Positions 2,469 to 18,744 of a DNA stretch of 18,744 nucleotides are shown in pieces. Position numbers and translations under genes: made by a program. How positions within the stretch are numbered: the first letter of the stretch is position 1; each line of letters begins with the position of its first letter. Source of the DNA: a virus (Duplodnaviria > Heunggongvirae > Uroviricota > Caudoviricetes); the IMG/VR virus record IMGVR_UViG_2636415906_000001, one strand, 5' to 3'. The notes under the pieces are model-generated. The model did no database searches. It had not been told where the DNA came from and saw only the letters and a list, made by a program, of their open reading frames with translations.

Positions 2469-3431
2469 TTATTCAATATCAAATAAATGCCTTGGGAAAC
2501 CGTTATTATCAGGTAATCCCATGGCTGTCAGGTTACATCCTGGTAAGTTAGGCTTGTTATCTACAAGGTTGGCAACTTTTTTTATCCAGTCAGATCCCGG
2601 TCCAATTTTTTTCACTAAAAACCATAACACAGCGATCATTCCGTACATTCTTTCGTACGCATCATCATTCATATTTAATTGCTCAAAGTACGGCTCATTT
2701 GGCAAAGGCATTAATCTTGGTTCGTTGACCTTGTTCCAGATGCGTGAATGGTGAGCGCACCGATTCCTTAGCACATTCATTGCGCTAAGCCAGTTTTGGA
2801 AGATAGCTCCATTGCCTGCCGCTATCCCTAGCCTAGATAGTATCCTGTTGCGATAGCTGTCTTTTAGCATCGCATAATACTTTGACATTAAGCCGAAGTC
2901 CCATACTTCAATAACCACCCAGAAAGGAAGACCTTCGTACTTGTTTTCATGCCATTTGATAAAGTCTTCGCGACTTTTAGCAATCTCGGCATTATGTTTA
3001 TTTATCCATTCTTCTCTGGCGCTTGGGCGACCATGGGAACGTGGTCTAAAGTGTTTTGGATTTATTAGCGAGTCATCAAGATATGCTAAAGGAGATATCT
3101 TACCAAGCTCATGAGCAATAACTGACCGAACATAAACCTCAATGCGTTCTAACGCATTCATCATCTGCAAACGCAGATTTTTATCGAATAAATAGAGGTC
3201 ATATACTGCGCGAAAATTAGTACCTGGACGAACCTGATCGAGTCTGGTTCTAATATTGTCTGTTGTTATATGGGGGATTCGGCAGGGGTACCAAAAGCCT
3301 GATAATCGGTAGTAGCCTACTTGTGAGATTTTCTTGATAGCATGTTCGCGATCTGGCACATCCATACCCCGAGACAGCAATAAATCGACAAGTTCATCAT
3401 ATTCTTTATGAACCTTAACCGGAACAGCCAT
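2469..3431 (-). CDS. Abortive-infection protein, Abi_2 family (AbiD/AbiF/AbiD1-like), 320 aa
   Basis: Abi_2 hallmarks as I recall them: N-terminal EYDELVDLLLSRGM...GYYRLSGFW and the central motif LRNRCAHHSRIWN. The gene is visibly AT-rich compared with the core operon. Confidence 0.85.
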   Translation of the reverse strand: MAVPVKVHKEYDELVDLLLSRGMDVPDREHAIKKISQVGYYRLSGFWYPCRIPHITTDNIRTRLDQVRPGTNFRAVYDLYLFDKNLRLQMMNALERIEVYVRSVIAHELGKISPLAYLDDSLINPKHFRPRSHGRPSAREEWINKHNAEIAKSREDFIKWHENKYEGLPFWVVIEVWDFGLMSKYYAMLKDSYRNRILSRLGIAAGNGAIFQNWLSAMNVLRNRCAHHSRIWNKVNEPRLMPLPNEPYFEQLNMNDDAYERMYGMIAVLWFLVKKIGPGSDWIKKVANLVDNKPNLPGCNLTAMGLPDNNGFPRHLFDIE

Positions 3432-4305: not shown

Positions 4306-4662
4306 GTGAGGGGGCAGGCAGTTATAATTATTTTGTTGGGTTTAATTGTCGCAAAGTTATACCCGACTTTATCGATGGTGTTTTTTGCCATTATTGGCGC
4401 AGCCATCTTTACTTATATCATTAAACATACCGCCTTGTGGTTCTATAAAATTGATATAGTTCAGAAGTTTGTACGTCCTGTGTCAATGTTATTACTAGCA
4501 TTAATACCAATTGGTGTTGCTTATGTAATTGATGTTTTTTACCCTTCGGACACTGAAAGGTGGTTGATAGTTTTGTATTGTTATATTGGTGTAGCTCTCT
4601 TTTGTGGATTTCATTGGTGTTTCGAAAAGATCAATGACTCTATTTCAAAGAATAAAGATTGA
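4306..4662 (+). CDS. Small integral membrane protein (about 118 aa, 3-4 predicted TM helices), GTG start
   Basis: Strong RBS AGGGAGG 5 nt upstream of GTG 4306. Hydrophobic stretches (IIILLGLIVAKL, FFAIIGAAIFTYII, LLLALIPIGVAYVIDVF, LIVLYCYIGVALFCGF). AT-rich. Ends 20 bp from the convergent 705-aa gene. Confidence 0.45.
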   Translation: MRGQAVIIILLGLIVAKLYPTLSMVFFAIIGAAIFTYIIKHTALWFYKIDIVQKFVRPVSMLLLALIPIGVAYVIDVFYPSDTERWLIVLYCYIGVALFCGFHWCFEKINDSISKNKD

Positions 4663-4676
4663 GGCCATCCGTGGCC
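4663..4676. terminator. Short GC hairpin (GGCCA-tccg-TGGCC) between convergent genes; possible weak bidirectional terminator
   Basis: 5-bp stem with a 4-nt loop exactly between the stop codons at 4660-4662 (plus strand) and 4682-4684 (minus strand). No clear U-tract. Confidence 0.2.
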
Positions 4677-4681
4677 ATTCA

Positions 4682-6799
4682 CTAGTCATTATCTGGATCA
4701 TTAGATAGCCAAGTAATGATGCCCAGTCTGGCGATGGTCCGTTTTTCCTGTTCAGGAAGAGAGTTAAAAAAACTCTTCCATTGAGGGGAGCGCCTGATAC
4801 GTGAATCAACAATGTGCCCAGGCGCTTTTCCGTGTAGATTTTTTACTGCGCTCTGGAAGGCTGGCGAGGCAATTAATTTATCCGCAGCATCAGCCGCCCC
4901 TGCTCCACCAGCTAATCGAGCTTTACTCGCCAATCTTGCTCCAATATCAGCCCCAGCAATGGCTCCAAGCGATCCAAAATGAGCGCCTACCATCGTGCCT
5001 ATTTTTTGAATGTGTTTTGCTGCTAGTTCGTATGGAGCTGTTACCCGATTAAATCTGTTTACAAACTCATTCAGCTTACCAGTAGATATTTCATGCGCTT
5101 TAGCATTTTTTATTGCTCTGGCAACTTTGTATACATCATATAGTCCGCTCATTGTTTCTTTTGGCAAATGTTCAGCCAAAGTCTTTAGCTGTCCACTGTG
5201 TTGCAAGTTTTGCCACCAATCTGCAAAGCCAGATGGATTAAAGTCGGCCCCACGCTTCCCAGAGGAAAGCATATCTCTTAATGCTGTTCCTACTAGCTCC
5301 CTTCGCAATGTTCTTGATGGAGTATTTTGCATAATCTCACGAAACCCTCTCGCATCACCTTTTGCCATAGATTGAAGAGAATTCGTTACTTTATACGCTA
5401 TATCCCCATTAAGTGTTTTCCCGCGAAGATTTACCATTTGCCTTTCTAAGTTTTTTCTCATAGCTACAAGGCGTTGTGCGACTTCGAAATCTCGCAAGTA
5501 TCCAGTATTGGATAAGACAGATTTTTGGTCTTCAGCTAAAGCTCCATATAGTCTTGATAGCGCTTCTTTATCAGCATCTTTGTATGGCCCCTGCTTTTTA
5601 TTTAGGGCATCACCAACTAAACGCCTTTGCCTGTTTAAATTTGCATACGTTAGGATGCTATCTGGGCCGGGGTTTATTGCTGTAAAAACTCGCTTTTCTA
5701 TTGGGTCAAGATTATCCCACCCTCCTAAATCATCAGCGATTTTTTCCAGCATAGTGCTTGTGTTATTTGCTTCGACTTTTGTTCTTGGTGATAGAGCGGA
5801 ATCAACACGTTTATATAACTGATCACTACGGTTTTTTAGTGCTTCCATTCTACTATTTATCTGATAAATATATTTTTCGCTCATAGCTAACGCATCTGGC
5901 GCACCAGCAACATCATCGATTATCTTGCCAGCACTAGAGGCTAATTCGCTTATTGCTTTATCTTCTTGAGCTTTTAACGCTGATCCTGTCCGTGACTTTA
6001 GGGCTTGCTCTACAGCTTGGTATTGCTCATTTCCTGATAAATGAGAAGGAAGAACTGAATCAACATGAAGCCTATTTGCAGCCTCAACAATTTCTTTCTG
6101 AGGTTTTAGATCTAGCCCTTCAAGCGAAGAGGCAAGATTTGGGTTGCCTTGTGCAGATAACTTACGAATTTTCTCTTCGGCAGGAGTAATCCCCTCAATA
6201 TCTGGAATCGAAGAAACATTCTTCTTGGTTAATTTCCCAGCTATTTTATTAATTGCAGGGCCAGCAAGTTCGGCTACAGGGCCAGCCACAGCGCCAATAG
6301 CAGCGCCGGAAGCAACATCGCTATTTGTTCCATTGGCTACAATAGCCCCTTCTCCAGCACCAAGCCCTGCGGCGGCAGCCAGTCTTGCCGCCCCTTTGGG
6401 AACCTGAGAAATAATCCCACCACCACTAACAAATGGCGCTGCTTGTCCAACGAACTCACCAACATCTTGTGCGGTTGATGGTTTTGCCGCTAACTTCTGC
6501 TGTAGAGACTGAATTGCGGCTTGCTCTTCTGGTGTCATATCCTGAAACAGGCCAACACCTTTACCAACATCCATCAATCCACTGAGAACGCCATACATAA
6601 AACGGTCGAAACCGTTAGCATTATTAACAACATTTTCCTGTCTGGAATTTTCCTCTGGTGAAACCAAAGGTGATTGCTGCTGTTCTGGTTGGGCATCAAG
6701 CACAAAACCATCAGGAAGCTGTGAACTATCAGGAAACTGTGAGTTATCAGGTTGTTCATCGAGCACAAAACCTTCCGGTAAGATTACATTTGCTGCCAT
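4682..6799 (-). CDS. Large hypothetical protein (705 aa): acidic repeat N-terminus, Gly/Ala-rich segment, coiled-coil-like middle; no recognisable enzymatic motif
   Basis: Long uninterrupted ORF with ATG start at 6797-6799, overlapping the upstream 451-aa gene by 16 nt (translational coupling). N-terminus LPEGFVLDEQPDNSQFPDSSQLPDGFVLDAQPEQQQ; AAAAGLGAGEGAIVANG...GAVAGPVAELAGP tract. No signal peptide or Walker motif seen. Confidence 0.8.
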   Translation of the reverse strand: MAANVILPEGFVLDEQPDNSQFPDSSQLPDGFVLDAQPEQQQSPLVSPEENSRQENVVNNANGFDRFMYGVLSGLMDVGKGVGLFQDMTPEEQAAIQSLQQKLAAKPSTAQDVGEFVGQAAPFVSGGGIISQVPKGAARLAAAAGLGAGEGAIVANGTNSDVASGAAIGAVAGPVAELAGPAINKIAGKLTKKNVSSIPDIEGITPAEEKIRKLSAQGNPNLASSLEGLDLKPQKEIVEAANRLHVDSVLPSHLSGNEQYQAVEQALKSRTGSALKAQEDKAISELASSAGKIIDDVAGAPDALAMSEKYIYQINSRMEALKNRSDQLYKRVDSALSPRTKVEANNTSTMLEKIADDLGGWDNLDPIEKRVFTAINPGPDSILTYANLNRQRRLVGDALNKKQGPYKDADKEALSRLYGALAEDQKSVLSNTGYLRDFEVAQRLVAMRKNLERQMVNLRGKTLNGDIAYKVTNSLQSMAKGDARGFREIMQNTPSRTLRRELVGTALRDMLSSGKRGADFNPSGFADWWQNLQHSGQLKTLAEHLPKETMSGLYDVYKVARAIKNAKAHEISTGKLNEFVNRFNRVTAPYELAAKHIQKIGTMVGAHFGSLGAIAGADIGARLASKARLAGGAGAADAADKLIASPAFQSAVKNLHGKAPGHIVDSRIRRSPQWKSFFNSLPEQEKRTIARLGIITWLSNDPDND

Positions 6800-8127
6800 T
6801 TTCCGTTCCTGTAAATGATTTTCTGACCAGTTTTAGGGTTGGTTGCCGTTGCGCCTTCTGATATTCCTCCGGTTGCCGCTTTTGCCTGTCCAGTGCCAGC
6901 CTGTGATGTAGGCTGCCCGGAAACATCGTCAAATAGCTTCGCTTTCCTTCTTTCAAGGCTTTTTCTTAGCCCCTGAGGAATAGTTTCTCCATATGTATCG
7001 AGATACTCGTCAACCTGCTGGTTAAACTGCTGCCCCATAGCATTGGCGTTGATTTTTGCGGCGTTAACAATGTTATCCTTTGCCTCCTGCGACAGGCCGT
7101 TTCCAGCATTAAGCTGGTCTATGTATCCTTTGATTTGTCCCCATATGCCATCAGACCGCATTACCTGAACCTGTTCGCCTTCACGAACGACTGACTGCGG
7201 GTCAAGAGATTTCATGTAGTTGAAGATAATCCCAAGTTGGGCAGCGCCAGTATTTACCTTGCTAAGGGCTTGCAGAGAGTTTGCCGCCGCTCTGACAGAG
7301 TTATAATTTTTGCCAAAATTGGTAATGTCAGAATTTAATCCCTTAATTAAGTCTGCTGACGGCTTACCTTTTTGCCCCAGCTCCATTAGCTTCAATCCCA
7401 TCTCATCTGAGTGAATTTGTGCTCGCTGAGCCCTGTCTAGTTGAGCGTTCTGGATATTTGCCCATCCTCTCGCGTTCTCCATGTCAGCCTGACGCATACT
7501 TTCATCCAGTCGCCCTTGCTCAAGTCGACGACCTTCCATTTGATCTTTGATATCGAAATACTTCTCATGACCGAGAGAAAACAGCGCCAGATTACCTGCG
7601 AAATGCTGGAAGCCCTGCGGGTCATTAACCTGCATTTCAGCAATAGTTTCTGGAGGGATACCTAAACGACGCATCTCCTGCTCATTATCCATCATGAACC
7701 TGCCAAATGCGCCCTGACCAAGCGATGAGGCTACCTGTGCTTTGAGCGCCAGATTGCCATAATCATCCCTTTGAGCATCATCGACATAACTCATCCCTTT
7801 ACGGACTTCCTCAAACTCTTCTGGGAATGCTGTAATAAGATTACGCATCTGCTCCCTGTCACCGGACGCATAAGCATCTGCATAACCTTTCTGGAATGCC
7901 GCTTTACGCTCCTGCTGTTGCTGCTGCTTATAAATATCAGCAACTCCAGCCAGACCACGAAGACCTGTCAGAGCAACGTTATTTGCACCTGATCGAGCCA
8001 GTTCATTGTTTTCGCGGATCAGACCAAGCGTTGCGTTAATGTCGCTTGCCTTTGGCGCATTCTCATTTTGCGTACCGATGCCAGCCAGAAAACCACCAGA
8101 ATTAATACCCTGTTGCCACGTAGCCAT
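6784..8127 (-). CDS. Hypothetical coiled-coil, Gln-rich protein (about 447 aa from ATG 8127; ORF track extends to GTG 8139)
   Basis: Long ORF; the ATG at 8125-8127 overlaps the stop of the upstream 57-aa ORF. QQQQQ run and low-complexity A/Q/N/G-rich sequence. No enzymatic motif recognised. Confidence 0.8.
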   Translation of the reverse strand: MATWQQGINSGGFLAGIGTQNENAPKASDINATLGLIRENNELARSGANNVALTGLRGLAGVADIYKQQQQQERKAAFQKGYADAYASGDREQMRNLITAFPEEFEEVRKGMSYVDDAQRDDYGNLALKAQVASSLGQGAFGRFMMDNEQEMRRLGIPPETIAEMQVNDPQGFQHFAGNLALFSLGHEKYFDIKDQMEGRRLEQGRLDESMRQADMENARGWANIQNAQLDRAQRAQIHSDEMGLKLMELGQKGKPSADLIKGLNSDITNFGKNYNSVRAAANSLQALSKVNTGAAQLGIIFNYMKSLDPQSVVREGEQVQVMRSDGIWGQIKGYIDQLNAGNGLSQEAKDNIVNAAKINANAMGQQFNQQVDEYLDTYGETIPQGLRKSLERRKAKLFDDVSGQPTSQAGTGQAKAATGGISEGATATNPKTGQKIIYRNGKWQQM

Positions 8128-8131
8128 AAAT

Positions 8132-8305
8132 TTACCCACGTCCAGTTAAAGTGTAAGCCAGCGCCTTATCCATTAATCCCCGAGCAATTTCGTGGATCGT
8201 TGGCGCAACTCCTACCTCTGATTTTTTACGCTGCTCCTCCTGAATTTTCTTTATCGCTTCCATTTGCTTCTCACTTATCAATACTGGCTTTACTGAAATA
8301 GCCAT
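8132..8305 (-). CDS. Small protein (57 aa, MAISVKPVLISEKQMEAIKKIQEEQRKKSEVGVAPTIHEIARGLMDKALAYTLTGRG), first gene of the operon; possibly RHH-like
   Basis: Below the ORF-track length cutoff; translated by hand. Strong RBS AAGGGGG 4-5 nt upstream of ATG 8303-8305. The stop overlaps the start of the 451-aa gene. Confidence 0.5.
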   Translation of the reverse strand: MAISVKPVLISEKQMEAIKKIQEEQRKKSEVGVAPTIHEIARGLMDKALAYTLTGRG

Positions 8306-8400: not shown

Positions 8401-8433
8401 AAAAAAATGCCACCGTTCAGTAGCTGGTGGCAT
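8401..8433 (-). terminator. Rho-independent terminator for leftward (minus-strand) transcription
   Basis: 8-bp stem ATGCCACC/GGTGGCAT (8407-8414 with 8426-8433), 11-nt loop, followed on the minus strand by TTTTTT (plus-strand A-run 8401-8406). It separates the satellite core operon from the cargo operon promoter. Confidence 0.65.
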
Positions 8434-8803
8434 CGTTCTGTATGTCAGGTTTTGACAGTTTTTTTATGGACTCTAAAAACTATATTTATGGAGTCGCATT
8501 ACTCTTCACGGCAGGCGCTTTCCAGTTCTGCCCTTGCTTCTGGCTCCATTGGTAATTTGATTCGCGATCAGCTATGCGGATGGTTTGCTGAACAGGCATA
8601 ACAACATCTCAGAGGCTATTTTTTGAACTACGAAAATTTCGTAGTGCTCACCTTCAAAAACGTCACGCCCTTGTACACTGGATTTTACAAAAGTCTCGTA
8701 AAACTCTTTGCTGTTCTGGGCTATGTGCCAAACCGCAGCGAATACCTCCGTCTGCCAGATGAGCAAAACATACCTTATAAAGAAAATCGCTGTTTTTGCT
8801 GTA

Positions 8804-8902
8804 CCACCTGTACCACCATGTCACAAACCCTTGTGTGGCGCGGCCTGCAGGTGGTACAGGTGGGTAAAAATGACCTCTCCCCACCTGTACAGACCTGTAC
8901 CA
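8804..8902. repeat. Cluster 1 of the GGTGGTACAGGT(GG) motif in both orientations
   Basis: Copies read at 8804-8817 (rc), 8850-8863 (fwd), 8881-8892 and 8893-8902 (rc, partial), immediately downstream of the 245-aa gene. Confidence 0.75.
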
Positions 8903-8907
8903 TTTAT

Positions 8908-9645
8908 TTAATTTTTACCCATAGCAGCACATAATCCCTTTTTTGAAATATTGAAAAATGCGTTCATTCTTCCCGCTGGCTTAACCTTGTAGCCGCTTGC
9001 CACCATCGCCGCAATAAATGCTCCGTTGGGGATATAGTGCGGGTGATCACTGTGCTGGTGGTTTATCTGGTTATATCGCTCCACTTCATGCTTCAACGTG
9101 TCAGATGTGGGGTTATCCTGCGGGAAGCTCTCAATCTGGGCATTACTCATCCCGTTGTCTCTGATCCATCTCAGGCAGCTTTTCGCCGATACGATAAATG
9201 ACGGGTTATCAAGCGGGTTTTCCCAGTCCGCATTCCGGTTGTGGAGCGCCAGTCCGTCAAGGTTAAATTGTGGGTATTCAGCGGTAATTACTGTCACTGC
9301 GTGGCGGATTTCAGTTTCGTCACAACATGGCTCATCTCCCACACCAGCAGGGTAATAATCTGAACCACCGGGACTGATACAGCTTTTACCACTGAAAGGC
9401 CATTGCTTCGCCATTTCGGGTGTTGAGTGATTACCGTCGCTCCGTTCGCGCTGTGCCTCTGTCCACTGGCTGGCATATTCAGTAAATGAAACTCTTTGCC
9501 CCTGGCGCATCCAGTGCGCAATCATAATTAAAGTGCGTTCCAGACTTTGGATGTCGCCAGCATTCCCGCACTGTGTAGCGAAACTTTTTAATTCTTCGCG
9601 CTCCGTTCTGGTCATTCCCTGCAGTATGCAATAGTTATTGTTCAT
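8908..9645 (-). CDS. Hypothetical protein (245 aa)
   Basis: ORF overlapping the upstream 76-aa gene by 11 nt. No family recognised. Confidence 0.65.
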   Translation of the reverse strand: MNNNYCILQGMTRTEREELKSFATQCGNAGDIQSLERTLIMIAHWMRQGQRVSFTEYASQWTEAQRERSDGNHSTPEMAKQWPFSGKSCISPGGSDYYPAGVGDEPCCDETEIRHAVTVITAEYPQFNLDGLALHNRNADWENPLDNPSFIVSAKSCLRWIRDNGMSNAQIESFPQDNPTSDTLKHEVERYNQINHQHSDHPHYIPNGAFIAAMVASGYKVKPAGRMNAFFNISKKGLCAAMGKN

Positions 9646-9865
9646 GTTTTACCTCTCTGATTTCTGCTGCCATATCTGTTGGCTCTATACAGCCGTCCCG
9701 ACTTGCCACGCAGGGAATAATGATTTCAACGGTATCGCCGTCAATACACATTTCAACATTCGCCCATGCCGCAATGGGTAGCCAGTCTGAACGCCCCTCA
9801 AACCGTAGCTGCCAGCCAGAGGAAGAAGCTAACTGGCGCACTTTGTAAAATGGTGTGCTCATCAT
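9635..9865 (-). CDS. Hypothetical small protein (76 aa)
   Basis: ORF with GAGG about 10 nt upstream of ATG. First gene after the primase-proximal motif cluster. Confidence 0.55.
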   Translation of the reverse strand: MMSTPFYKVRQLASSSGWQLRFEGRSDWLPIAAWANVEMCIDGDTVEIIIPCVASRDGCIEPTDMAAEIREVKHEQ

Positions 9866-9915
9866 TGGTTGTTTCCTCTCAGCCAGCCAGAAGAAATGCG
9901 TTTGTTAATGGTATA

Positions 9916-10012
9916 GGTGGTACAGGTCTGGTATAGGTAAGATATTGACCTGTACCACTATAACGCACTGTTTTTAATACTGAATTAGCAAAGTGGTATA
10001 GGTGGTACAGGT
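9916..10012. repeat. Cluster 2 of the GGTGGTACAGGT motif, between the primase stop and the next gene
   Basis: Copies at 9916-9927 (fwd), 9948-9958 (rc) and 10001-10012 (fwd), plus repeated GGTATAGGT. The same motif as cluster 1, about 1.1 kb away. Confidence 0.75.
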
Positions 10013-10041
10013 AAAAACGATCTTCTTGTAAAAAGACTATA

Positions 10042-12393
10042 TTAAAAAACATCATAACCCCCCATACCGATCAGACGGGCAAACGCAGCCTGTAGAACTC
10101 CGACCTCTGGTAGTTCGTAGAACACGCCATTCCCTCGGTCTGGTCTTCCATGCTTCACCAGCCCCATTTGTGCAAGTGATTTACCCAGTAGTGATCTGGC
10201 TGCTGGCTCTTTAAGCTTTTCCCCACGCTCAAGCGACCACGCTACAAATCGACTAACCATATCCTTTGCAAACAAACGGACTTCGCCATTAAACGGAGGT
10301 TCATTGATTAGCTCGCCATAAAGAAACAATTCAACGCCAGACAGCCCCAGCAAGATTTCTTCACGTAAGGCATCGGTCTGTGGCGCTCGTTGAGGGTCAA
10401 AACCTGAGAGATCCACCCCTTTAAGATGCCAAAGCAACTTTGCGGCACCGCCATCATTAAGCCAACTGTACAGCCGATCAAAATACTCCCGACTCTGTGC
10501 TTTTTCAGGAGATGGCTCAAGCACGAGATAGCGACGCTCTCTTATCCCTGCCTGTAATACCTGTGTGCTGTTACTGGCAAATATCAACCGGGCAAAATTC
10601 GGCATTGGTTCAGCATCAATTCCCTTGCGCTCAAGGTTAAACGTCGGTTCGCTAATAATCGCTTTAAGTCTGTCAGCTTCAGACGGCTTGTGGATCGTCA
10701 CTTCGTCAGCAAATACCAGTAGCTTGTTAGCAAGTATTGAATTGAAGCGCCCTGAAATATGTCCCGCCCCGTTAATGTGGGCGGCGTACTGCCCCAGTAT
10801 TTGCAGCAGCGGTTTAACCGTTGTGCCTTTCCCTGTGCCCGGGACAGATTTCATCACGATTGCCACGGACGGTTTTTCATCAGGCTTTTGGATAATGTGC
10901 GCCATCCACTGGATAAGATATTGGTATGCCTCCTCATTACCGGCACAGACAACCTGCAACAGGTGATTAAGGTATACCGTGCAATCTCCTTCAATTGGTT
11001 CCAGTGCCAGCCCCTCATACAGATTAAAAACATCGTCAGGGCATTTGTCTGGTACTGGATAAAATCCTACGCCTCCTGGCTTGTAGTTCTTCCCACTCCA
11101 TGACAGCCACGCCGATCCCGCCAGCTTTCTGGCGACTCTCGGTTTATGATGAAAATAATGCTGAAATTGTGATAAATCCTCGAAAACGTGCGATACACCG
11201 CCGGTTTGAGAAGGCTTTAGCGACACCACCTTGTGTTTCCCGCCGATGGTGACATGCGTAAACGTCCGGTTGATTTCTTCGAGGACAGCAATTTCATCAT
11301 CGCTTAACACCTCGCCAGAACTGATCTCATTCAGCGCCCCGACTGACTGTTTGTGATTTTTCACCTGCGCCCCTTTCCCCCGTGGCTGGTACATCGAATC
11401 TTTAAATGCTGCTGTGGCTGCCGCCAGCCCGTGTTGTTGGTGATAGTCGTTCCAGTCGGCTTTATAGTCAGTCGGTGGCAGAGACACCCAGCCAGCTACG
11501 GAAATAGCGGCCCTCTCTGCGGCATCTTTCCCCGTGTTGATCCCTCCACTTTCGGAGTTTCCTTGCTGGTGATCGTTATCTGCGGCAATGATGATTTGTG
11601 CCTGTGGATATGTTCTGCGCATGACTTCCGCTACTGGCAACAGGTTGCCAGCGTCGATTGCTGCCACTGTCATTGCGTCAGGGCGAATTAAATGGCACGA
11701 CAGGGCGGTAGCCACCCCCTCAGCAATTATGATGCTGTGAGGTCGTTTCTGTGCGTTTATGGCGTGATATGCCCCCCGCTTTGCTGAACCTGTCAGGAGT
11801 CTTTTTTCACCATGTGAGGTAATAGTCTGTGCTGCTGTTACTGCGCCGGATTTATCCACCAGCGCCAGCAACAGAGATCCATCGGGCAACACGGGGAATG
11901 TAAAATCACCTACCCCTTTCGCAACCAGATAATCAGATTTGCCGTTTACAGCCTTTCTGCGCATGTCATCAAACTGACGGGAAAACGTATCCCGTCTTTG
12001 TTGTTCGTCCTTCTCTGCCCTTTTCAGGCGCTCCTGTTCGCGTCGCTGGCGCTCGGTTTCCAGTTGTTCCCGTTTCTGGCTGGTGGCTTCTGGTGTTTCC
12101 GTTGTCCGGTAATCAATACCCAGAACATCAGCGGCAAGAAGCGCCGCCTCTGTTGTGTCGCAGTTATTTACGCGTTTAATTAAATCCAGCCCATCACCAG
12201 CGCCGCACTGATTACAGATGAAGCTACCGCGCCCGTTGTCATCGAACCGGAATCGATCTTTGCCCCCACATGCAGGGCAGGGAGCATGACGGCGCGGAGA
12301 GTCAGGGACATTTATGTTCAGGCAGCCCAGCACATGAGGCCAGTTGTTTTCAGACGCACTGATAACCTGACGGATAAGATCAATGTTTCGCAT
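10042..12393 (-). CDS. P4 alpha-like primase-helicase (zinc-binding N-terminus, TOPRIM primase, C-terminal P-loop NTPase/helicase), 783 aa
   Basis: Cys-rich motif CPACGG...CNQCG near the N-terminus; toprim-like IIIAEGVATALS and AADNDHQ; Walker A VPGTGKGT in the C-terminal half. This is the typical P4-family satellite replication protein architecture. Confidence 0.9.
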   Translation of the reverse strand: MRNIDLIRQVISASENNWPHVLGCLNINVPDSPRRHAPCPACGGKDRFRFDDNGRGSFICNQCGAGDGLDLIKRVNNCDTTEAALLAADVLGIDYRTTETPEATSQKREQLETERQRREQERLKRAEKDEQQRRDTFSRQFDDMRRKAVNGKSDYLVAKGVGDFTFPVLPDGSLLLALVDKSGAVTAAQTITSHGEKRLLTGSAKRGAYHAINAQKRPHSIIIAEGVATALSCHLIRPDAMTVAAIDAGNLLPVAEVMRRTYPQAQIIIAADNDHQQGNSESGGINTGKDAAERAAISVAGWVSLPPTDYKADWNDYHQQHGLAAATAAFKDSMYQPRGKGAQVKNHKQSVGALNEISSGEVLSDDEIAVLEEINRTFTHVTIGGKHKVVSLKPSQTGGVSHVFEDLSQFQHYFHHKPRVARKLAGSAWLSWSGKNYKPGGVGFYPVPDKCPDDVFNLYEGLALEPIEGDCTVYLNHLLQVVCAGNEEAYQYLIQWMAHIIQKPDEKPSVAIVMKSVPGTGKGTTVKPLLQILGQYAAHINGAGHISGRFNSILANKLLVFADEVTIHKPSEADRLKAIISEPTFNLERKGIDAEPMPNFARLIFASNSTQVLQAGIRERRYLVLEPSPEKAQSREYFDRLYSWLNDGGAAKLLWHLKGVDLSGFDPQRAPQTDALREEILLGLSGVELFLYGELINEPPFNGEVRLFAKDMVSRFVAWSLERGEKLKEPAARSLLGKSLAQMGLVKHGRPDRGNGVFYELPEVGVLQAAFARLIGMGGYDVF

Positions 12394-13482: not shown

Positions 13483-13673
13483 TTTTCACCCCCAAGAATT
13501 ACCAGCTCGGCACGGGCATCGTTAACCAAAGATGAGCACGCTTTAATCGCATCCACGACATCAGCAGCGTCCATTTCTTCAGCCGAAAGACTGACAGCAA
13601 CCAGGACATCCGCTGCTTGCTCGATTAATTGAAGTGCGGACGTAAGGCGAGGGGTATTAATTGAGTTATTCAT
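13479..13673 (-). CDS. Hypothetical small acidic protein (about 64 aa from ATG 13673)
   Basis: The internal ATG at 13671-13673 overlaps the stop (13666-13668) of the upstream 342-aa ORF; the ORF track's longer version would overlap that gene. Confidence 0.5.
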   Translation of the reverse strand: MNNSINTPRLTSALQLIEQAADVLVAVSLSAEEMDAADVVDAIKACSSLVNDARAELVILGGEK

Positions 13674-14694
13674 TGGTTGCCCCCGTTTTGCATGGCATTT
13701 GTCCACCTTCCAGCAGGAAATGAACGTCACGAACGGCGAGATCCAATATCGCGAGTAACGCCTTCAGCCTTTCGTCTCGTGAGGGAGAGTTGCTCACCAG
13801 AATGTCGTTAATCACTTCTGTCAGTGTGATGATCTGGCTTGTGCGTTCGAGGGGATCCATATGCACATCGTAGGTTTTAATCATGTGCCACCTCCATGCG
13901 GATACGACCAGCAAAAAAGCAGACGTGATCGCGCACCAGAGAACGGCGAGCATCGCGTTCAGACTCGGCAGCAATATGATGAATTTTGGCGGTAATTGTC
14001 GGGCAATCGCGGCGAACTGCGGCGATAATCCAGATAAATTGCGGTTTTTGGGTAGGGGTAGTAGCCAGCATGTGGCAGCCTCCTTGATTGATGGTTTATA
14101 GCCACCGCCCAAGAGACCAATCTTGCTGGCGGTGGACTGTACGGAGTTGGCCTTACTGGCAATCAAGGAAACCAGCCTACCCGAAGGTAGCCCCATACAG
14201 CCCACCATTGATAAGGTGTGCGTGTGCGCCGATACAAAAAAAGACGCTGGCGCGTCATGTATCGCCTCGATTGTCAGCGGGAGGCCAATCCCGGCACCCG
14301 TTTTATGAGGTGCCTTATAACCATAAACCGTGTTGCCGCATAACGGCAAGCTCTTTTTTATGGACTCCGAAAACTCACTATTGGAAGAACCAGAAGCACA
14401 GTACATCGCGCTCATTTCGTTAACGTCACGCGCATGGACGAAGGTTTTTGTGGAGTCACTACGCGAGAAGAGAAAGCCATCTACGACCAGAAATTCTCTG
14501 GCGCAGCCGCTGACCTTCTCAACGCTAACACCATCGACCGTAATTTCTGACATGGTTAAGGCATCCGCTCCTACCACCAGCAAATGACAAACTTTGCTTG
14601 TATCTGCTGTATTAATGCCTGACTTTGCTGTCATATTGCTGGATTTTGGCGACATACCAGCCAGTGAAAATATCTTCTTCTGGACGGTTAGCAT
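13666..14694 (-). CDS. Hypothetical protein (342 aa); Ser/Thr/Gly-rich N-terminal two-thirds, hydrophobic segment, C-terminal helical tail
   Basis: Long uninterrupted ORF with GGAGG RBS 8 nt upstream of ATG 14694. No family recognised. Composition changes along its length, so a sequencing frameshift or fused domains cannot be excluded. Confidence 0.5.
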
Positions 14695-15708: not shown

Positions 15709-16140
15709 TTAGGCGGCGTTAAACGCGTCCGGGTAGAGTTTCAGAATGTCGGCAATTTCCTGCTGAGAAAGTCCGTTGTGATCATTTATGTTCGCAAGAT
15801 GGTTAACATGAGTGATCACTTTCAGAACATCACCACGGCAGGAGAAACGGTAGCGAAGGTGTGTTCCGATACCATCAGGATTCTTTTCGTCGATACGCTC
15901 CAGAGTGATTCCAAGCTGGCGTTCTAACTCTGTTGCATAGTTACGACCAGAAGACAGACGGCAGTAGCGAAGAATGTCATTTTCTGTCCATCCCTCTATA
16001 CCAGTACGCAGCATATAGACTCGGGCACGATGCTTTTTCGGTGTGCGCTTTGGTGCTTGAAGGGATTTTGTAAGGGGCGTAATATCAGATACGCGAATAT
16101 CTGAATTAGCCGCCTGTAATGGGCGGTTTTTCTTTTCCAT
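15709..16140 (-). CDS. Hypothetical basic protein (143 aa)
   Basis: The ORF start overlaps the alpA stop (ATGA). No family recognised. Confidence 0.6.
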   Translation of the reverse strand: MEKKNRPLQAANSDIRVSDITPLTKSLQAPKRTPKKHRARVYMLRTGIEGWTENDILRYCRLSSGRNYATELERQLGITLERIDEKNPDGIGTHLRYRFSCRGDVLKVITHVNHLANINDHNGLSQQEIADILKLYPDAFNAA

Positions 16141-16358
16141 CAGGCCACCTTCCCGCGGCGTTCTGCCAGCCAGTTATTAATTTCCACCGCATCAAACGCA
16201 GTCACGTTATCTGTTAGCTTCACTGGGCGTGGAAGAGTGCCATTTTTAACCCATCTATCAATAGTAGGCAGTGAAACACCTAGCAATTCCGGCATGCGAA
16301 AGCGACGGATGTATCCAGTTGTTGGGATAGCTGATGATGCTGGCTTGTGTGCTGTCAT
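16140..16358 (-). CDS. alpA: AlpA-family prophage transcriptional regulator / excisionase-like protein (72 aa)
   Basis: IRRFRMPELLGVSLPTIDRWVKNGTLPRPVKLTDNVTAFDAVEINNWL matches the AlpA (Phage_AlpA) HTH pattern. Position between int and the primase operon is typical of P4-like and CP4-57-like elements. Confidence 0.8.
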   Translation of the reverse strand: MTAHKPASSAIPTTGYIRRFRMPELLGVSLPTIDRWVKNGTLPRPVKLTDNVTAFDAVEINNWLAERRGKVA

Positions 16359-16828: not shown

Positions 16829-17479
16829 TTAGTCGAGATCGTGGACAGCTAATAAAGCCCGTGAGATTTTTTCTAGGAATGTGGCTTTTGCTATTCCTTT
16901 ATGGGATATCCCTTCATCCTTGATTAAGGTTTCTATGTCACGGTATATAGCTGTGCGATTAGGTTTCCCATTTTGGATGTAGGAAGATGAGCCTGATTTT
17001 TTTATCAGCAGATGTACTATCAACCCCATCATTTTCATTGTCCCGTTTTCCTCATCCTGCTTTCTATGCTGCCCACGTCCGCTGCGGTTGGTTTCTTTGA
17101 TGTAGTTTACTAACTGGAGTCCTCCAAGGTTTCGGGCTTTTTCTTCCCAGCCCTTGGTGCCACGCAAATCATCAATCGCTTCTGATATTTTCTGAACAAT
17201 TATTTCTGGTGTATTTGTGTCAATAAATGGGTAAGAAGCTAAGAAAATATCAAGGGCATGGCAAGGCTCATCTTTACTAGTTTTTTCACCTCTGTACACC
17301 TTGATAGCTCTGGCAAGATGAGTTCTGACAAAATCGACATATTCGAAATTTTCCTCAGGCACATCGCTAATGCGCATAGATGGGTTTAGGCCAGCCAAGG
17401 CCACAGCCATTTCATGAGGGGTAATCGATACAGATGAACAAAGCCGTTCGATTGGCGATTTTCTCAAGATGTTGTTCAC
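16829..17479 (-). CDS. Hypothetical protein (216 aa) translationally coupled to the integrase; GTG start
   Basis: GTG at 17479 overlaps the int stop (GTGA) with GGAGG 5-6 nt upstream. AT-rich relative to int. No family recognised. Confidence 0.65.
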   Translation of the reverse strand: MNNILRKSPIERLCSSVSITPHEMAVALAGLNPSMRISDVPEENFEYVDFVRTHLARAIKVYRGEKTSKDEPCHALDIFLASYPFIDTNTPEIIVQKISEAIDDLRGTKGWEEKARNLGGLQLVNYIKETNRSGRGQHRKQDEENGTMKMMGLIVHLLIKKSGSSSYIQNGKPNRTAIYRDIETLIKDEGISHKGIAKATFLEKISRALLAVHDLD

Positions 17480-18744
17480 ATTTGCCTCCGGGCTTTATCG
17501 AATGGCGTTACGTTGTAGTCTTTCCCGCTTTCCAGTGCCACCAGCAGATCTGCCCACTGTGCCAGTGCTGCTTTACGCTCATCAAAATACTGATGACGGT
17601 TATAAATCCCCTCTACGCCCTTAATGCGATGATTGAGGCATCGTTCCGCCACGACAGGATCAACACCCAATGCTGCTAAATGAGTACGTGCGGTGCGTCG
17701 GAAGTCGTGAATCGTGAAATTAGGCACATCCGGCATTTCGGCGCGAACCTTAGCCAGTGCTACGGGTAAAGTGCTTTCCTGAATATGTGGGATCATTCTG
17801 TTTTGCATCTTCCTGGCCGGAAGCACCCATGCGCTATTACATGAAAAGGTGTGTAGCTCTCTCAACCATTCAACGGCTGGGGAAGGTAGAGGTATATCAA
17901 TAGGGTCTCCGTTTTTGCTGCGTTCTTCCGGCAAATGCCATACCGCACCATCTAAATCAAACTCTTCCCATCGTGCGGCGCATAACTCCATCTTACGAAC
18001 GCATAGTGCCAGCAATAGCTTAAATGTCAGTTCGTTCTGGCGGCTGAATCCTTTTGCGGTGCGCATAGCCTCGAATAGCCTGATAAGCTCATCGCGAGTT
18101 AGCCAACGGTCGCGGGAAACCTCTTTACCACCAGCATCAGATACTTCAAACGCTGAACAAGGGTTTATCTCCAGAGCGTGGCGTTTTATCCCATAGTCAA
18201 AGATACGGCGTGTCCAGCGTAATACATCTGTTGCTATCGTTGGTGCTCCTCGGTCAACGATACCTTTTAACATGTCGTCAATGTGACGTGGCTTAACGTC
18301 CTCTACCTTCATATGCCCAATGCAGGGGTTAATATCCTTATCAATTCTCCGGCGAAGGATATCGGGATGTTTCCATCTCGGAAGTATCTGGCGCTCGAAG
18401 TATTCGGAGGCCAGATCTGAAACACGCATGGCGTTTTTCTCAGCCTCCATTTTTGCCAGTGCTTCAGCTTTTCGTTCCTGTTTCTCTGCTGCTACGTCAT
18501 AGCCAAGAGCAACTCTGGCTGACAGCTCTTTTGCTGTTTCTCTGGCTTTTGATAGTGACAGTTCGGAGTAAGAGCCTATAACCATAGCCCGCTGCTTTCC
18601 TGCGAGCTTATAGCGGAATCGCCAGAACGGGACTGTGTAGTTTTTGGGGTAGCAAATATAAAGGCCGTTGCCGTCTGCCTTGCCATCAAATCTGTCTCCC
18701 GCCTTTATCCATGCGCGGATCTGCATATCTGTGAGTTTTGGCAT
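17476..18744 (-). CDS. int: Tyrosine site-specific integrase, P4 family (422 aa); start codon is the last three bases of the window
   Basis: N-terminal arm-binding-like region (GLYICYP...WRFRYKLAGKQRAMVIGSY), catalytic-domain motifs HDFRRTARTHL and LNHRIKGVEGIYNRHQY (R/H-x-x-R and the Tyr nucleophile). Confidence 0.9.
   Translation of the reverse strand: MPKLTDMQIRAWIKAGDRFDGKADGNGLYICYPKNYTVPFWRFRYKLAGKQRAMVIGSYSELSLSKARETAKELSARVALGYDVAAEKQERKAEALAKMEAEKNAMRVSDLASEYFERQILPRWKHPDILRRRIDKDINPCIGHMKVEDVKPRHIDDMLKGIVDRGAPTIATDVLRWTRRIFDYGIKRHALEINPCSAFEVSDAGGKEVSRDRWLTRDELIRLFEAMRTAKGFSRQNELTFKLLLALCVRKMELCAARWEEFDLDGAVWHLPEERSKNGDPIDIPLPSPAVEWLRELHTFSCNSAWVLPARKMQNRMIPHIQESTLPVALAKVRAEMPDVPNFTIHDFRRTARTHLAALGVDPVVAERCLNHRIKGVEGIYNRHQYFDERKAALAQWADLLVALESGKDYNVTPFDKARRQM

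Follow-up and report, generated by a model that had tools for sequence, protein, structure and literature searches.

The window analysed here, a stretch of 18,744 nucleotides held in IMG/VR as IMGVR_UViG_2636415906_000001, is an Escherichia coli chromosomal island inserted between yicC and dinD, and the stretch is found nearly unchanged in about 129 of 5,426 complete genomes. We describe in it two clusters of a short repeat, array A and array B, which form a candidate replication origin downstream of the primase-helicase gene (10042-12393, - strand) and flank two small genes. An earlier, sequence-only reading had reported a motif in two clusters and in both orientations, the second cluster lying about 30 bp past the primase-helicase stop codon and two small genes lying between the clusters. 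Each of these points was borne out: the motif is enriched beyond shuffled sequence and its exact 9-mers occur only in the clusters, the distance from position 10012 to the stop codon at 10042-10044 is 29 nt, and both genes are real and conserved across genera.

The same reading had counted at least seven copies of a 12-mer, GGTGGTACAGGT. The clustering holds, but the count was overstated, as only four copies are exact (8806-8817 on the - strand; 8850-8861, 9916-9927, and 10001-10012 on the + strand). Allowing up to two mismatches, GGTGGTACAGGT has 10 matches against 0.72 expected, a number attained in none of 200 shuffles, and 8 of the 10 are located in the clusters. The true repeat unit is the 9-mer GGTAYAGGT (ACCTRTACC on the other strand). 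Its nine exact copies are confined to 8806-8901 and 9910-10012; at up to one mismatch, 13 matches compare with 3.8 expected (again reached in 0 of 200 shuffles), 10 of them inside the clusters. The 9-mer is frequently tandem, at 9-bp spacing, and both clusters hold copies of it in both orientations.

Array A, the second cluster of the earlier reading and the one beside the primase-helicase gene, spans 9910-10012 and contains six exact GGTAYAGGT copies. Read in the direction of that gene, two direct copies of ACCTRTACC (10004-10012 and 9995-10003) precede a 36-nt AT-rich spacer, one inverted copy (9948-9956), 9 nt, and three further direct copies (9930-9938, 9919-9927, and 9910-9918), the last of which is followed by the ribosome-binding region of the 76-amino-acid gene. 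The AT-rich spacer (9957-9994; GC content of 0.30 to 0.33 over 9940-9999) is a likely DNA-unwinding element, and the adjoining DNA at 10013-10041 is likewise AT-rich, with a GC content of 0.225 at 10020-10059. Within a comparison set of about 50 related loci, cited here by L numbers, this layout was kept in seven aligned loci from different genera, with 80% identity in iteron columns versus 36% in the others. Five E. coli alleles differ by six single-nucleotide polymorphisms (SNPs) in the clusters, none of them in a 9-mer core and three of them in the spacer of array A.

Array B, the first cluster of the earlier reading (8797-8901), is an inverted copy of the 2-spacer-1-3 layout of array A and comprises five good and two weak copies, with three exact and two near-exact cores in the window. 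The copies are located at 8797-8805 (-, two mismatches), 8806-8814 (-), 8853-8861 (+), 8863-8871 (+, weak), 8873-8881 (-, weak), 8883-8891 (-, one mismatch), and 8893-8901 (-). The spacer of this array (8815-8852) is GC-rich, with a GC content of 0.625 at 8820-8859, and bears a conserved motif, GCCGCG...AGGSTTTG, which recurs in the spacer of array B at L005, L032, L034, and L036 and also at L053, where only one array is present. It also contains a 5-bp palindrome, whose sequence varies among loci and which is too short for interpretation. Array B is retained in the Buttiauxella and Raoultella relatives, and among the split loci identity amounts to 75% in iteron columns versus 50% in the others. 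The inverted relation of the two arrays is visible in three inverted-repeat pairs (I1, I3, and I4). Their outer ends have a common element, GGTGGTACAGGT..AAAAAC.G.GAT, and both this element and the array B outer element GGTGGTACAGGTGGnACAGCAAAAAC.GC.ATTTT are conserved even in systems whose primase-helicase is only about 50% identical in its C-terminal domain.

Searches of the clusters detected no promoter- or terminator-like site and no Rfam family match, no DnaA box was present within 800 bp of them, and a full-text literature search for the motif returned chance matches only, in unrelated papers. RNA hairpins were considered as the identity of the repeats and rejected, since the repeats occur without the genes, covary with the replication protein module, and include tandem copies unable to pair.

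The enclosed genes encode proteins of 76 amino acids (9635-9865, -), with 41 to 86% identity in five genera, and of 245 amino acids (8908-9645, -), a fusion of two domains that also occur singly in proteins of about 100 or about 130 amino acids (836 profile hits). The families comprise 20 and 29 members, respectively, all from Enterobacterales. The 76-amino-acid protein had no match in Pfam, PHROGs, NCBIfam, or PADLOC, and the same resources assigned no function to the 245-amino-acid protein, whose family has no known domain, or to the standalone relatives of its halves. The latter matched PHROGs of unknown function but no family in Pfam. No Rep family match was obtained for either gene. The primase-helicase has 783 amino acids and consists of a Zn-ribbon primase, a Toprim domain, a DUF5906 helicase of the superfamily 3 (SF3) type, and a C-terminal domain (Pfam and PHROG), the Pfam matches being Zn_Ribbon_Prim and Toprim_3. 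In a phmmer search against the PDB, its helicase region matched the phage NrS-1 helicase as the sole match. The C-terminal domain (amino acids ~684 to 775; 10069-10344, -) is a predicted winged helix with the topology helix-helix-helix-strand-strand (AlphaFold2, predicted local distance difference test score of about 90), modeled from a shallow alignment of eight sequences. The best Foldseek matches to this model were all winged-helix domains, among them ORC/Cdc6, with E values of at least 0.076.

Iteron type and the C-terminal module

Across the related loci, the repeat sequence varies in step with the C-terminal helicase/winged-helix module of the primase-helicase, but not with its N-terminal primase domain or with the flanked genes. 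GGTAYAG arrays were found in every fetched locus with a window-type C-terminal domain, and no such cluster was detected in fetched loci without it. The loci concerned, from E. coli, Buttiauxella, Pantoea, Raoultella, Xenorhabdus, Salmonella, Providencia, two metagenome contig types, and seven IMG/VR contigs, are 50 to 90% identical in this domain. The copies in E. coli genomes are near-identical (at least 98%) and of little use for covariation. DUF927-type proteins have a primase domain 88% identical to that of the window, yet their iteron is TGAACCAAC. At 16 DUF927-type loci from other genera, the iterons always begin about 25 nt past the stop codon, and within this group five C-terminal tails pair with five iterons: the tail RG[YF]QRKSPRI with GAACCAAC (10 loci), the tail GRGYQGRVREDGRQ with AGACAACA (three loci), and the tails of L010, L025, and L017 with ACGGGTTA, CGGTCACA, and ATCCCTAC, respectively (one locus each). 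Ten of the 16 loci carry 8 to 12 repeats across 170 to 310 bp, that is, more than one array. A further helicase type, AAA_25, pairs with the iteron AAAGTGGGGA. A start of the iterons about 25 nt past the stop codon was common to every related primase-helicase locus examined. In pMP1, a 7.6-kb non-mobilizable autonomous plasmid, the sole replication-type gene encodes a primase-helicase 34% identical to that of the window, its C-terminal part included, and 9-bp repeats occupy about 300 bp 3' of this gene. This distant homolog lends indirect support to autonomous replication by such a module.

The flanked genes show a different distribution. The 245-amino-acid protein family follows three different replication proteins with three different iterons, always beside the origin; a 67%-identical copy lies beside AAAGTGGGGA repeats and a 44%-identical copy beside GGTACAG repeats. 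From these comparisons, the flanked genes do not appear to encode the iteron readers.

Residues 1 to 340 of the primase-helicase are 88% identical to the DUF927-type primases of sister islands (L003 and L007), and its DUF5906 helicase and C-terminal domain are unrelated to the proteins of these islands, with the junction near nucleotide 11372. The protein is a recent chimera. Homology between the window and L003 (blastn) ends at 8707 and resumes at 11372, and because of these limits the exchanged replication module (8708-11371, -) comprises both arrays and the two genes between them in addition to the helicase and the C-terminal domain; the N-terminal primase domain remains outside it. Across the family, the C-terminal module thus indicates which iteron is used, and this helps in annotating satellite origins and incompatibility groups.

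A probable single origin in two halves and competing explanations

Nine distinct relatives (L034/L035, L036, and L044 to L050) have both arrays but neither of the flanked genes. There, the arrays are contiguous, about 25 nt apart, and together occupy about 215 to 250 bp directly after the stop codon. In the window and the Buttiauxella and Raoultella relatives, the two genes fill exactly the linker between the halves; in the window, the stop codon of the 245-amino-acid protein gene is 5 nt from the first array B iteron and the cassette measures 1.05 kb. Because the arrays of the nine relatives adjoin as one origin in the absence of the genes, the window appears to hold one composite, roughly palindromic origin cut by a 1.05-kb two-gene cassette. 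The arrays would therefore be better described as two halves of this origin than as an origin and an independent cis replication region (crr). In Xenorhabdus L031, the main GGTACAG array with an AT-rich spacer (4762-4870) is inverted and lies between the 73- and 260-amino-acid protein genes, and two degenerate repeats are left beside the primase stop codon (4455-4475), so that the arrangement of genes and arrays is variable.

The confinement of the motif to the clusters, their position past the stop codon, the covariation with the C-terminal module, the independence from the flanked genes, the conservation of the iterons, a layout shared with the origin of phage P4, the winged-helix model of the C-terminal domain, the presence of both arrays in the exchanged module, the lack of DnaA boxes, promoters, and terminators in the clusters, and the precedent of PICI and SaPI origins (see below) together argue that the clusters are iteron arrays at which the island starts its replication, read by the C-terminal domain of the primase-helicase, and that this composite origin was split by a cassette. 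We consider this explanation, as a whole, probable. The primase-helicase, as the putative initiator, would bind the 9-mers (ACCTRTACC/GGTAYAGGT) via its C-terminal winged-helix domain, the predicted iteron reader, and open AT-rich DNA in or beside array A (9957-9994 and 10013-10041). Self-loading of the helicase, independent of DnaA, and the priming of synthesis would follow, in the manner described for P4 alpha and the Rep proteins of phage-inducible chromosomal islands (PICIs) and Staphylococcus aureus pathogenicity islands (SaPIs). Array B would most likely be a partner site for the same protein, either a second loading site or a crr-like looping partner across 1.1 kb. If correct, this provides, for a satellite island that is common in E. 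coli, a precise and testable prediction of the origin and of the specificity of its initiator.

Several observations weigh against this explanation, and the role of array B is its weakest point. The iterons of array B are conserved less than those of array A (0.58 to 0.75 versus 0.80 to 0.85), its spacer is GC-rich, unlike the AT-rich spacer of array A, the array is missing in Salmonella L051, Providencia L052, and L053, which keep the 76-amino-acid protein gene, and it is decayed in the Pantoea relative. Because of this weaker conservation, the GC-rich spacer, and the loss or decay in relatives, array B may be dispensable. As to the reader, the winged-helix assignment derives from the shallow eight-sequence alignment, all Foldseek matches are nonsignificant, and the origin-binding domain of P4 alpha (PDB 1KA8) was absent from the phmmer PDB matches and from the top 50 Foldseek matches. 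Moreover, the model of the 245-amino-acid protein has a small, weak winged-helix-like part, and judging from this model a DNA-binding role of the protein is conceivable.

The points concerning array B would also fit a situation in which only array A works and array B is a stranded, slowly decaying relic of the second half. The lower conservation of its iterons, the several degenerate copies in the array of the Raoultella relative, the loss of the array in the Pantoea relative, the single array in the Salmonella, Providencia, and L053 relatives, and the GC-rich spacer in the window all speak for a relic. However, three of its cores in the window are exact and two nearly so, three genera retain the array, and no SNP affects its cores among the E. 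coli alleles compared; its outer element GGTGGTACAGGTGGnACAGCAAAAAC.GC.ATTTT is preserved at about 50% C-terminal identity, second arrays recur in other iteron families, and the single array of L053 has the GC-rich spacer type, so that such a spacer is compatible with function. On balance, we regard a relic as possible but doubtful. It is less likely still, in our estimation, that array B is a negative control site, which titrates or handcuffs the initiator in the manner of P1 incA or F incC. A second array about 1 kb from the origin and without an AT-rich unwinding region is the classic arrangement in iteron plasmids, but the P1 and F arrays flank the initiator gene and those of the window flank unrelated genes. 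In addition, the contiguous arrays of the relatives form one palindromic unit, which is more like a single initiation site, and a satellite with burst replication after induction would have little need of copy number control.

Two further explanations dispense with replication altogether. In the first, the repeats would serve as operators for a regulator without a role in replication, such as the 245- or the 76-amino-acid protein, which would control the cassette. An operator of an unrelated regulator had been named by the sequence-only reading as a case that would overturn its proposal. The arrays do bracket the cassette, and the weak winged-helix-like part in the 245-amino-acid protein model could be taken in its favor. 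Yet nine distinct loci have both arrays and neither gene, the 245-amino-acid protein family occurs with three unrelated iterons and its similarity does not track the iteron type, the clusters lack a promoter-like site, and the iteron type tracks the helicase C-terminal module without exception. Because both arrays exist without the genes and the family spans three iteron types, we discard this possibility as highly improbable. Even less credit is due to the idea of a small mobile cassette with two genes, of which the clusters would be the terminal inverted repeats. A 24-nt inverted repeat, 88% complementary, does mark the outer ends (8793-8816 and 9993-10016), and only some of the relatives have the cassette, but it contains no transposase or recombinase, the same inverted arrays occur without it, the Xenorhabdus genes are placed differently relative to the arrays, and the repeats are multicopy 9-mers that covary with the Rep protein. 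The split replication origin remains our preferred explanation of the two arrays.

The island and its sister islands

The genes of the island run in one direction (- strand) in the order integrase (17476-18744), AlpA-like helix-turn-helix protein (16140-16358), AntA, Ash, primase-helicase, the two small genes, P22-type ejection proteins, and AbiD. By its sequence features, the island is best classified as a PICI-like phage satellite. Two Rfam matches above the gathering score, a C4 antisense RNA (14125-14212, -; 79 bits) and an isrK Hfq-binding RNA (14237-14313, -; 65 bits), lie inside the open reading frame called Ash (13666-14694) and correspond to a P1/P7/P4-type immunity RNA module. The P22 ejection (injectosome) homologs are an Inj_translocase (6784-8139, -) and a 705-amino-acid DNA-transfer-protein-like gene product (4682-6799, -), and an AbiD/Abi_2 abortive-infection gene is found at 2469-3431 (-). 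This cargo is unusual for a satellite and suggests a P22-like helper.

The replication module is followed by a piece of about 105 bp (8600-8707) that over 300 E. coli genomes share at 92 to 95%, their islands having a different primase. It includes a perfect 19-bp palindrome, ACTACGAAAATTTCGTAGT, at 8627-8645. A gene of the P22-like Klebsiella phage phiKp_30 matches the 38 bp at 8620-8657 with 100% identity, and these 38 bp also resemble an "anti-repressor" gene from another phage. The piece may represent the remnant of a gene or a regulatory site connected with the helper. Downstream of both array B and this piece, a terminator-like hairpin with a T run (GCTACTGAACGGTGGC ATTTTTTTG; 8409-8424, -) probably marks the end of the replication operon.

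The sister islands L003 and L004, at the same or other att sites, have flanking DNA 88 to 94% identical to that of the window and a DUF927-type helicase, and their origin, directly past the stop codon and of the textbook PICI form, consists of four copies of TGAACCAAC, an AT-rich stretch, and three copies of GTTGGTTCA. Each of them has two inverted TGAACCAAC arrays 7.6 kb apart (4564-4684 and 12155-12274 in L003; 4380-4500 and 12155-12265 in L004), which bracket the P22-type ejection protein module; the distal copy lies just upstream of perC, and its spacer is the reverse complement of the proximal spacer. The window also contains such a sequence at 1789-1909, where six exact TGAACCAAC copies are arranged as three inverted copies, a 43-nt AT-rich spacer, and three direct copies. 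It is situated just upstream of a PerC-like gene (1465-1752, -) and is 93% identical to the distal array of the sister islands. Since the cognate DUF927 module has been replaced in the window, the sequence at 1789-1909 is an orphan origin-like array.

Comparison with known replication systems

The N-terminal primase domain is homologous to that of P4 alpha (33% identity over 335 amino acids; E value of 1e-40; BLASTP), with no BLASTP alignment past amino acid 337, and the protein scored 20.4 bits with the P4-family helicase model TIGR01613, below its cut-off of 108.7. The label "P4 alpha-like primase-helicase" given by the sequence-only reading hence suits the primase domain, but the helicase and the DNA-binding part are not of the P4 family. 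P4 alpha reportedly recognizes the type I repeats in ori as well as in crr via a C-terminal winged helix (PDB 1KA8). We took the ori and crr features from the annotated P4 record. As had been anticipated, the repeat sequences differ, the P4 type I iteron being TGTTCACC and that of the window GGTAYAGGT. The layout of the origin is the same: in the direction of alpha, P4 ori has two copies of TGTTCACC, a 35-nt AT-rich spacer, one inverted copy, 13 nt, and three copies, and array A likewise has two direct copies, an AT-rich stretch of about 35 to 36 nt, one inverted copy, and three direct copies. In P4, the crr units lie 46 nt past the stop codon of alpha, as two 120-bp direct repeats in inverted orientation to ori, and 4.5 kb separate them from it; in the window, it is the ori-like AT-rich array that adjoins the gene, with a single inverted copy as its partner at a distance of 1.1 kb. 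The two systems are alike in having a second, inverted iteron region and in that one region begins tens of nucleotides past the stop codon. The island lacks sid, psu, and delta genes, unlike P4. The proposed ori/crr-like replication pair is thus supported as far as the covariation, the occurrence of other iterons with other C-terminal types, the P4 layout, and the second inverted region are concerned, but not with respect to an independent crr.

Inserts between paired arrays form a size series, from none in the metagenomic and IMG/VR relatives, through 0.9 to 1.05 kb in L033 and the window, to 7.6 kb in the sister islands; in L033, two arrays of ACCGACAA repeats flank a 260-amino-acid protein gene. 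These comparisons suggest that double arrays are common in this superfamily of replicons, where cargo tends to occupy the DNA between the two arrays. More tentatively, and with less than even confidence, we speculate that double, mutually inverted arrays are a general feature of P4/PICI-type primase-helicase replicons, with the linker as a recurrent cargo site and the window as an intermediate between a contiguous and a bipartite origin. If this were true, P4 crr would have begun as the second half of a split origin, and the distant arrays would still cooperate by looping. The split and contiguous forms offer a simple evolutionary route to the long-puzzling two-part P4 origin.

In the iteron plasmids P1 (incC/incA) and F (incB/incC), two arrays of the same repeat, about 1 kb apart, flank the initiator gene, and the second array exerts negative control. 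The arrays of these plasmids enclose an initiator of the Rep_3/RepA type, whereas the genes enclosed in the window are unlinked to iteron specificity.

Among satellites, the Gram-negative PICIs (e.g., EcCICFT073; Fillol-Salom et al. 2018, PMC6092414) resemble the window in their integrase gene, AlpA-like regulator, single gene direction, specific att site, and pri-rep gene. Their ori follows the 3' end of pri-rep directly, as two sets of iterons that flank an AT-rich region, and plasmid replication is driven by pri-ori (PMC6092414). Array A is similar, with two plus four copies around a spacer with a GC content of 0.30, and array B, with a GC content of 0.625, is not. The iteron/helicase type of the window was not found in the text of PMC6092414, figures aside, and this study describes a single region only, to which the window adds a second, inverted array and two interrupting genes. 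In SaPI Rep, a C-terminal winged-helix domain binds the iterons and the helicase loads itself; the iterons lie immediately downstream of the gene around an AT-rich center, and double-hexamer loading has been proposed (Qiao et al. 2022, PMC9371898). SaPI Rep, PriRep, and the window have in common an initiator that is itself the helicase and iterons just downstream of its gene, the initiator role and the winged helix being predictions in the case of the window. Within this framework, the origin appears to be of the known PICI/P4-like iteron type, its repeat sequence and its helicase/DNA-binding module appear to be new, and its unusual feature would be the split by two genes.

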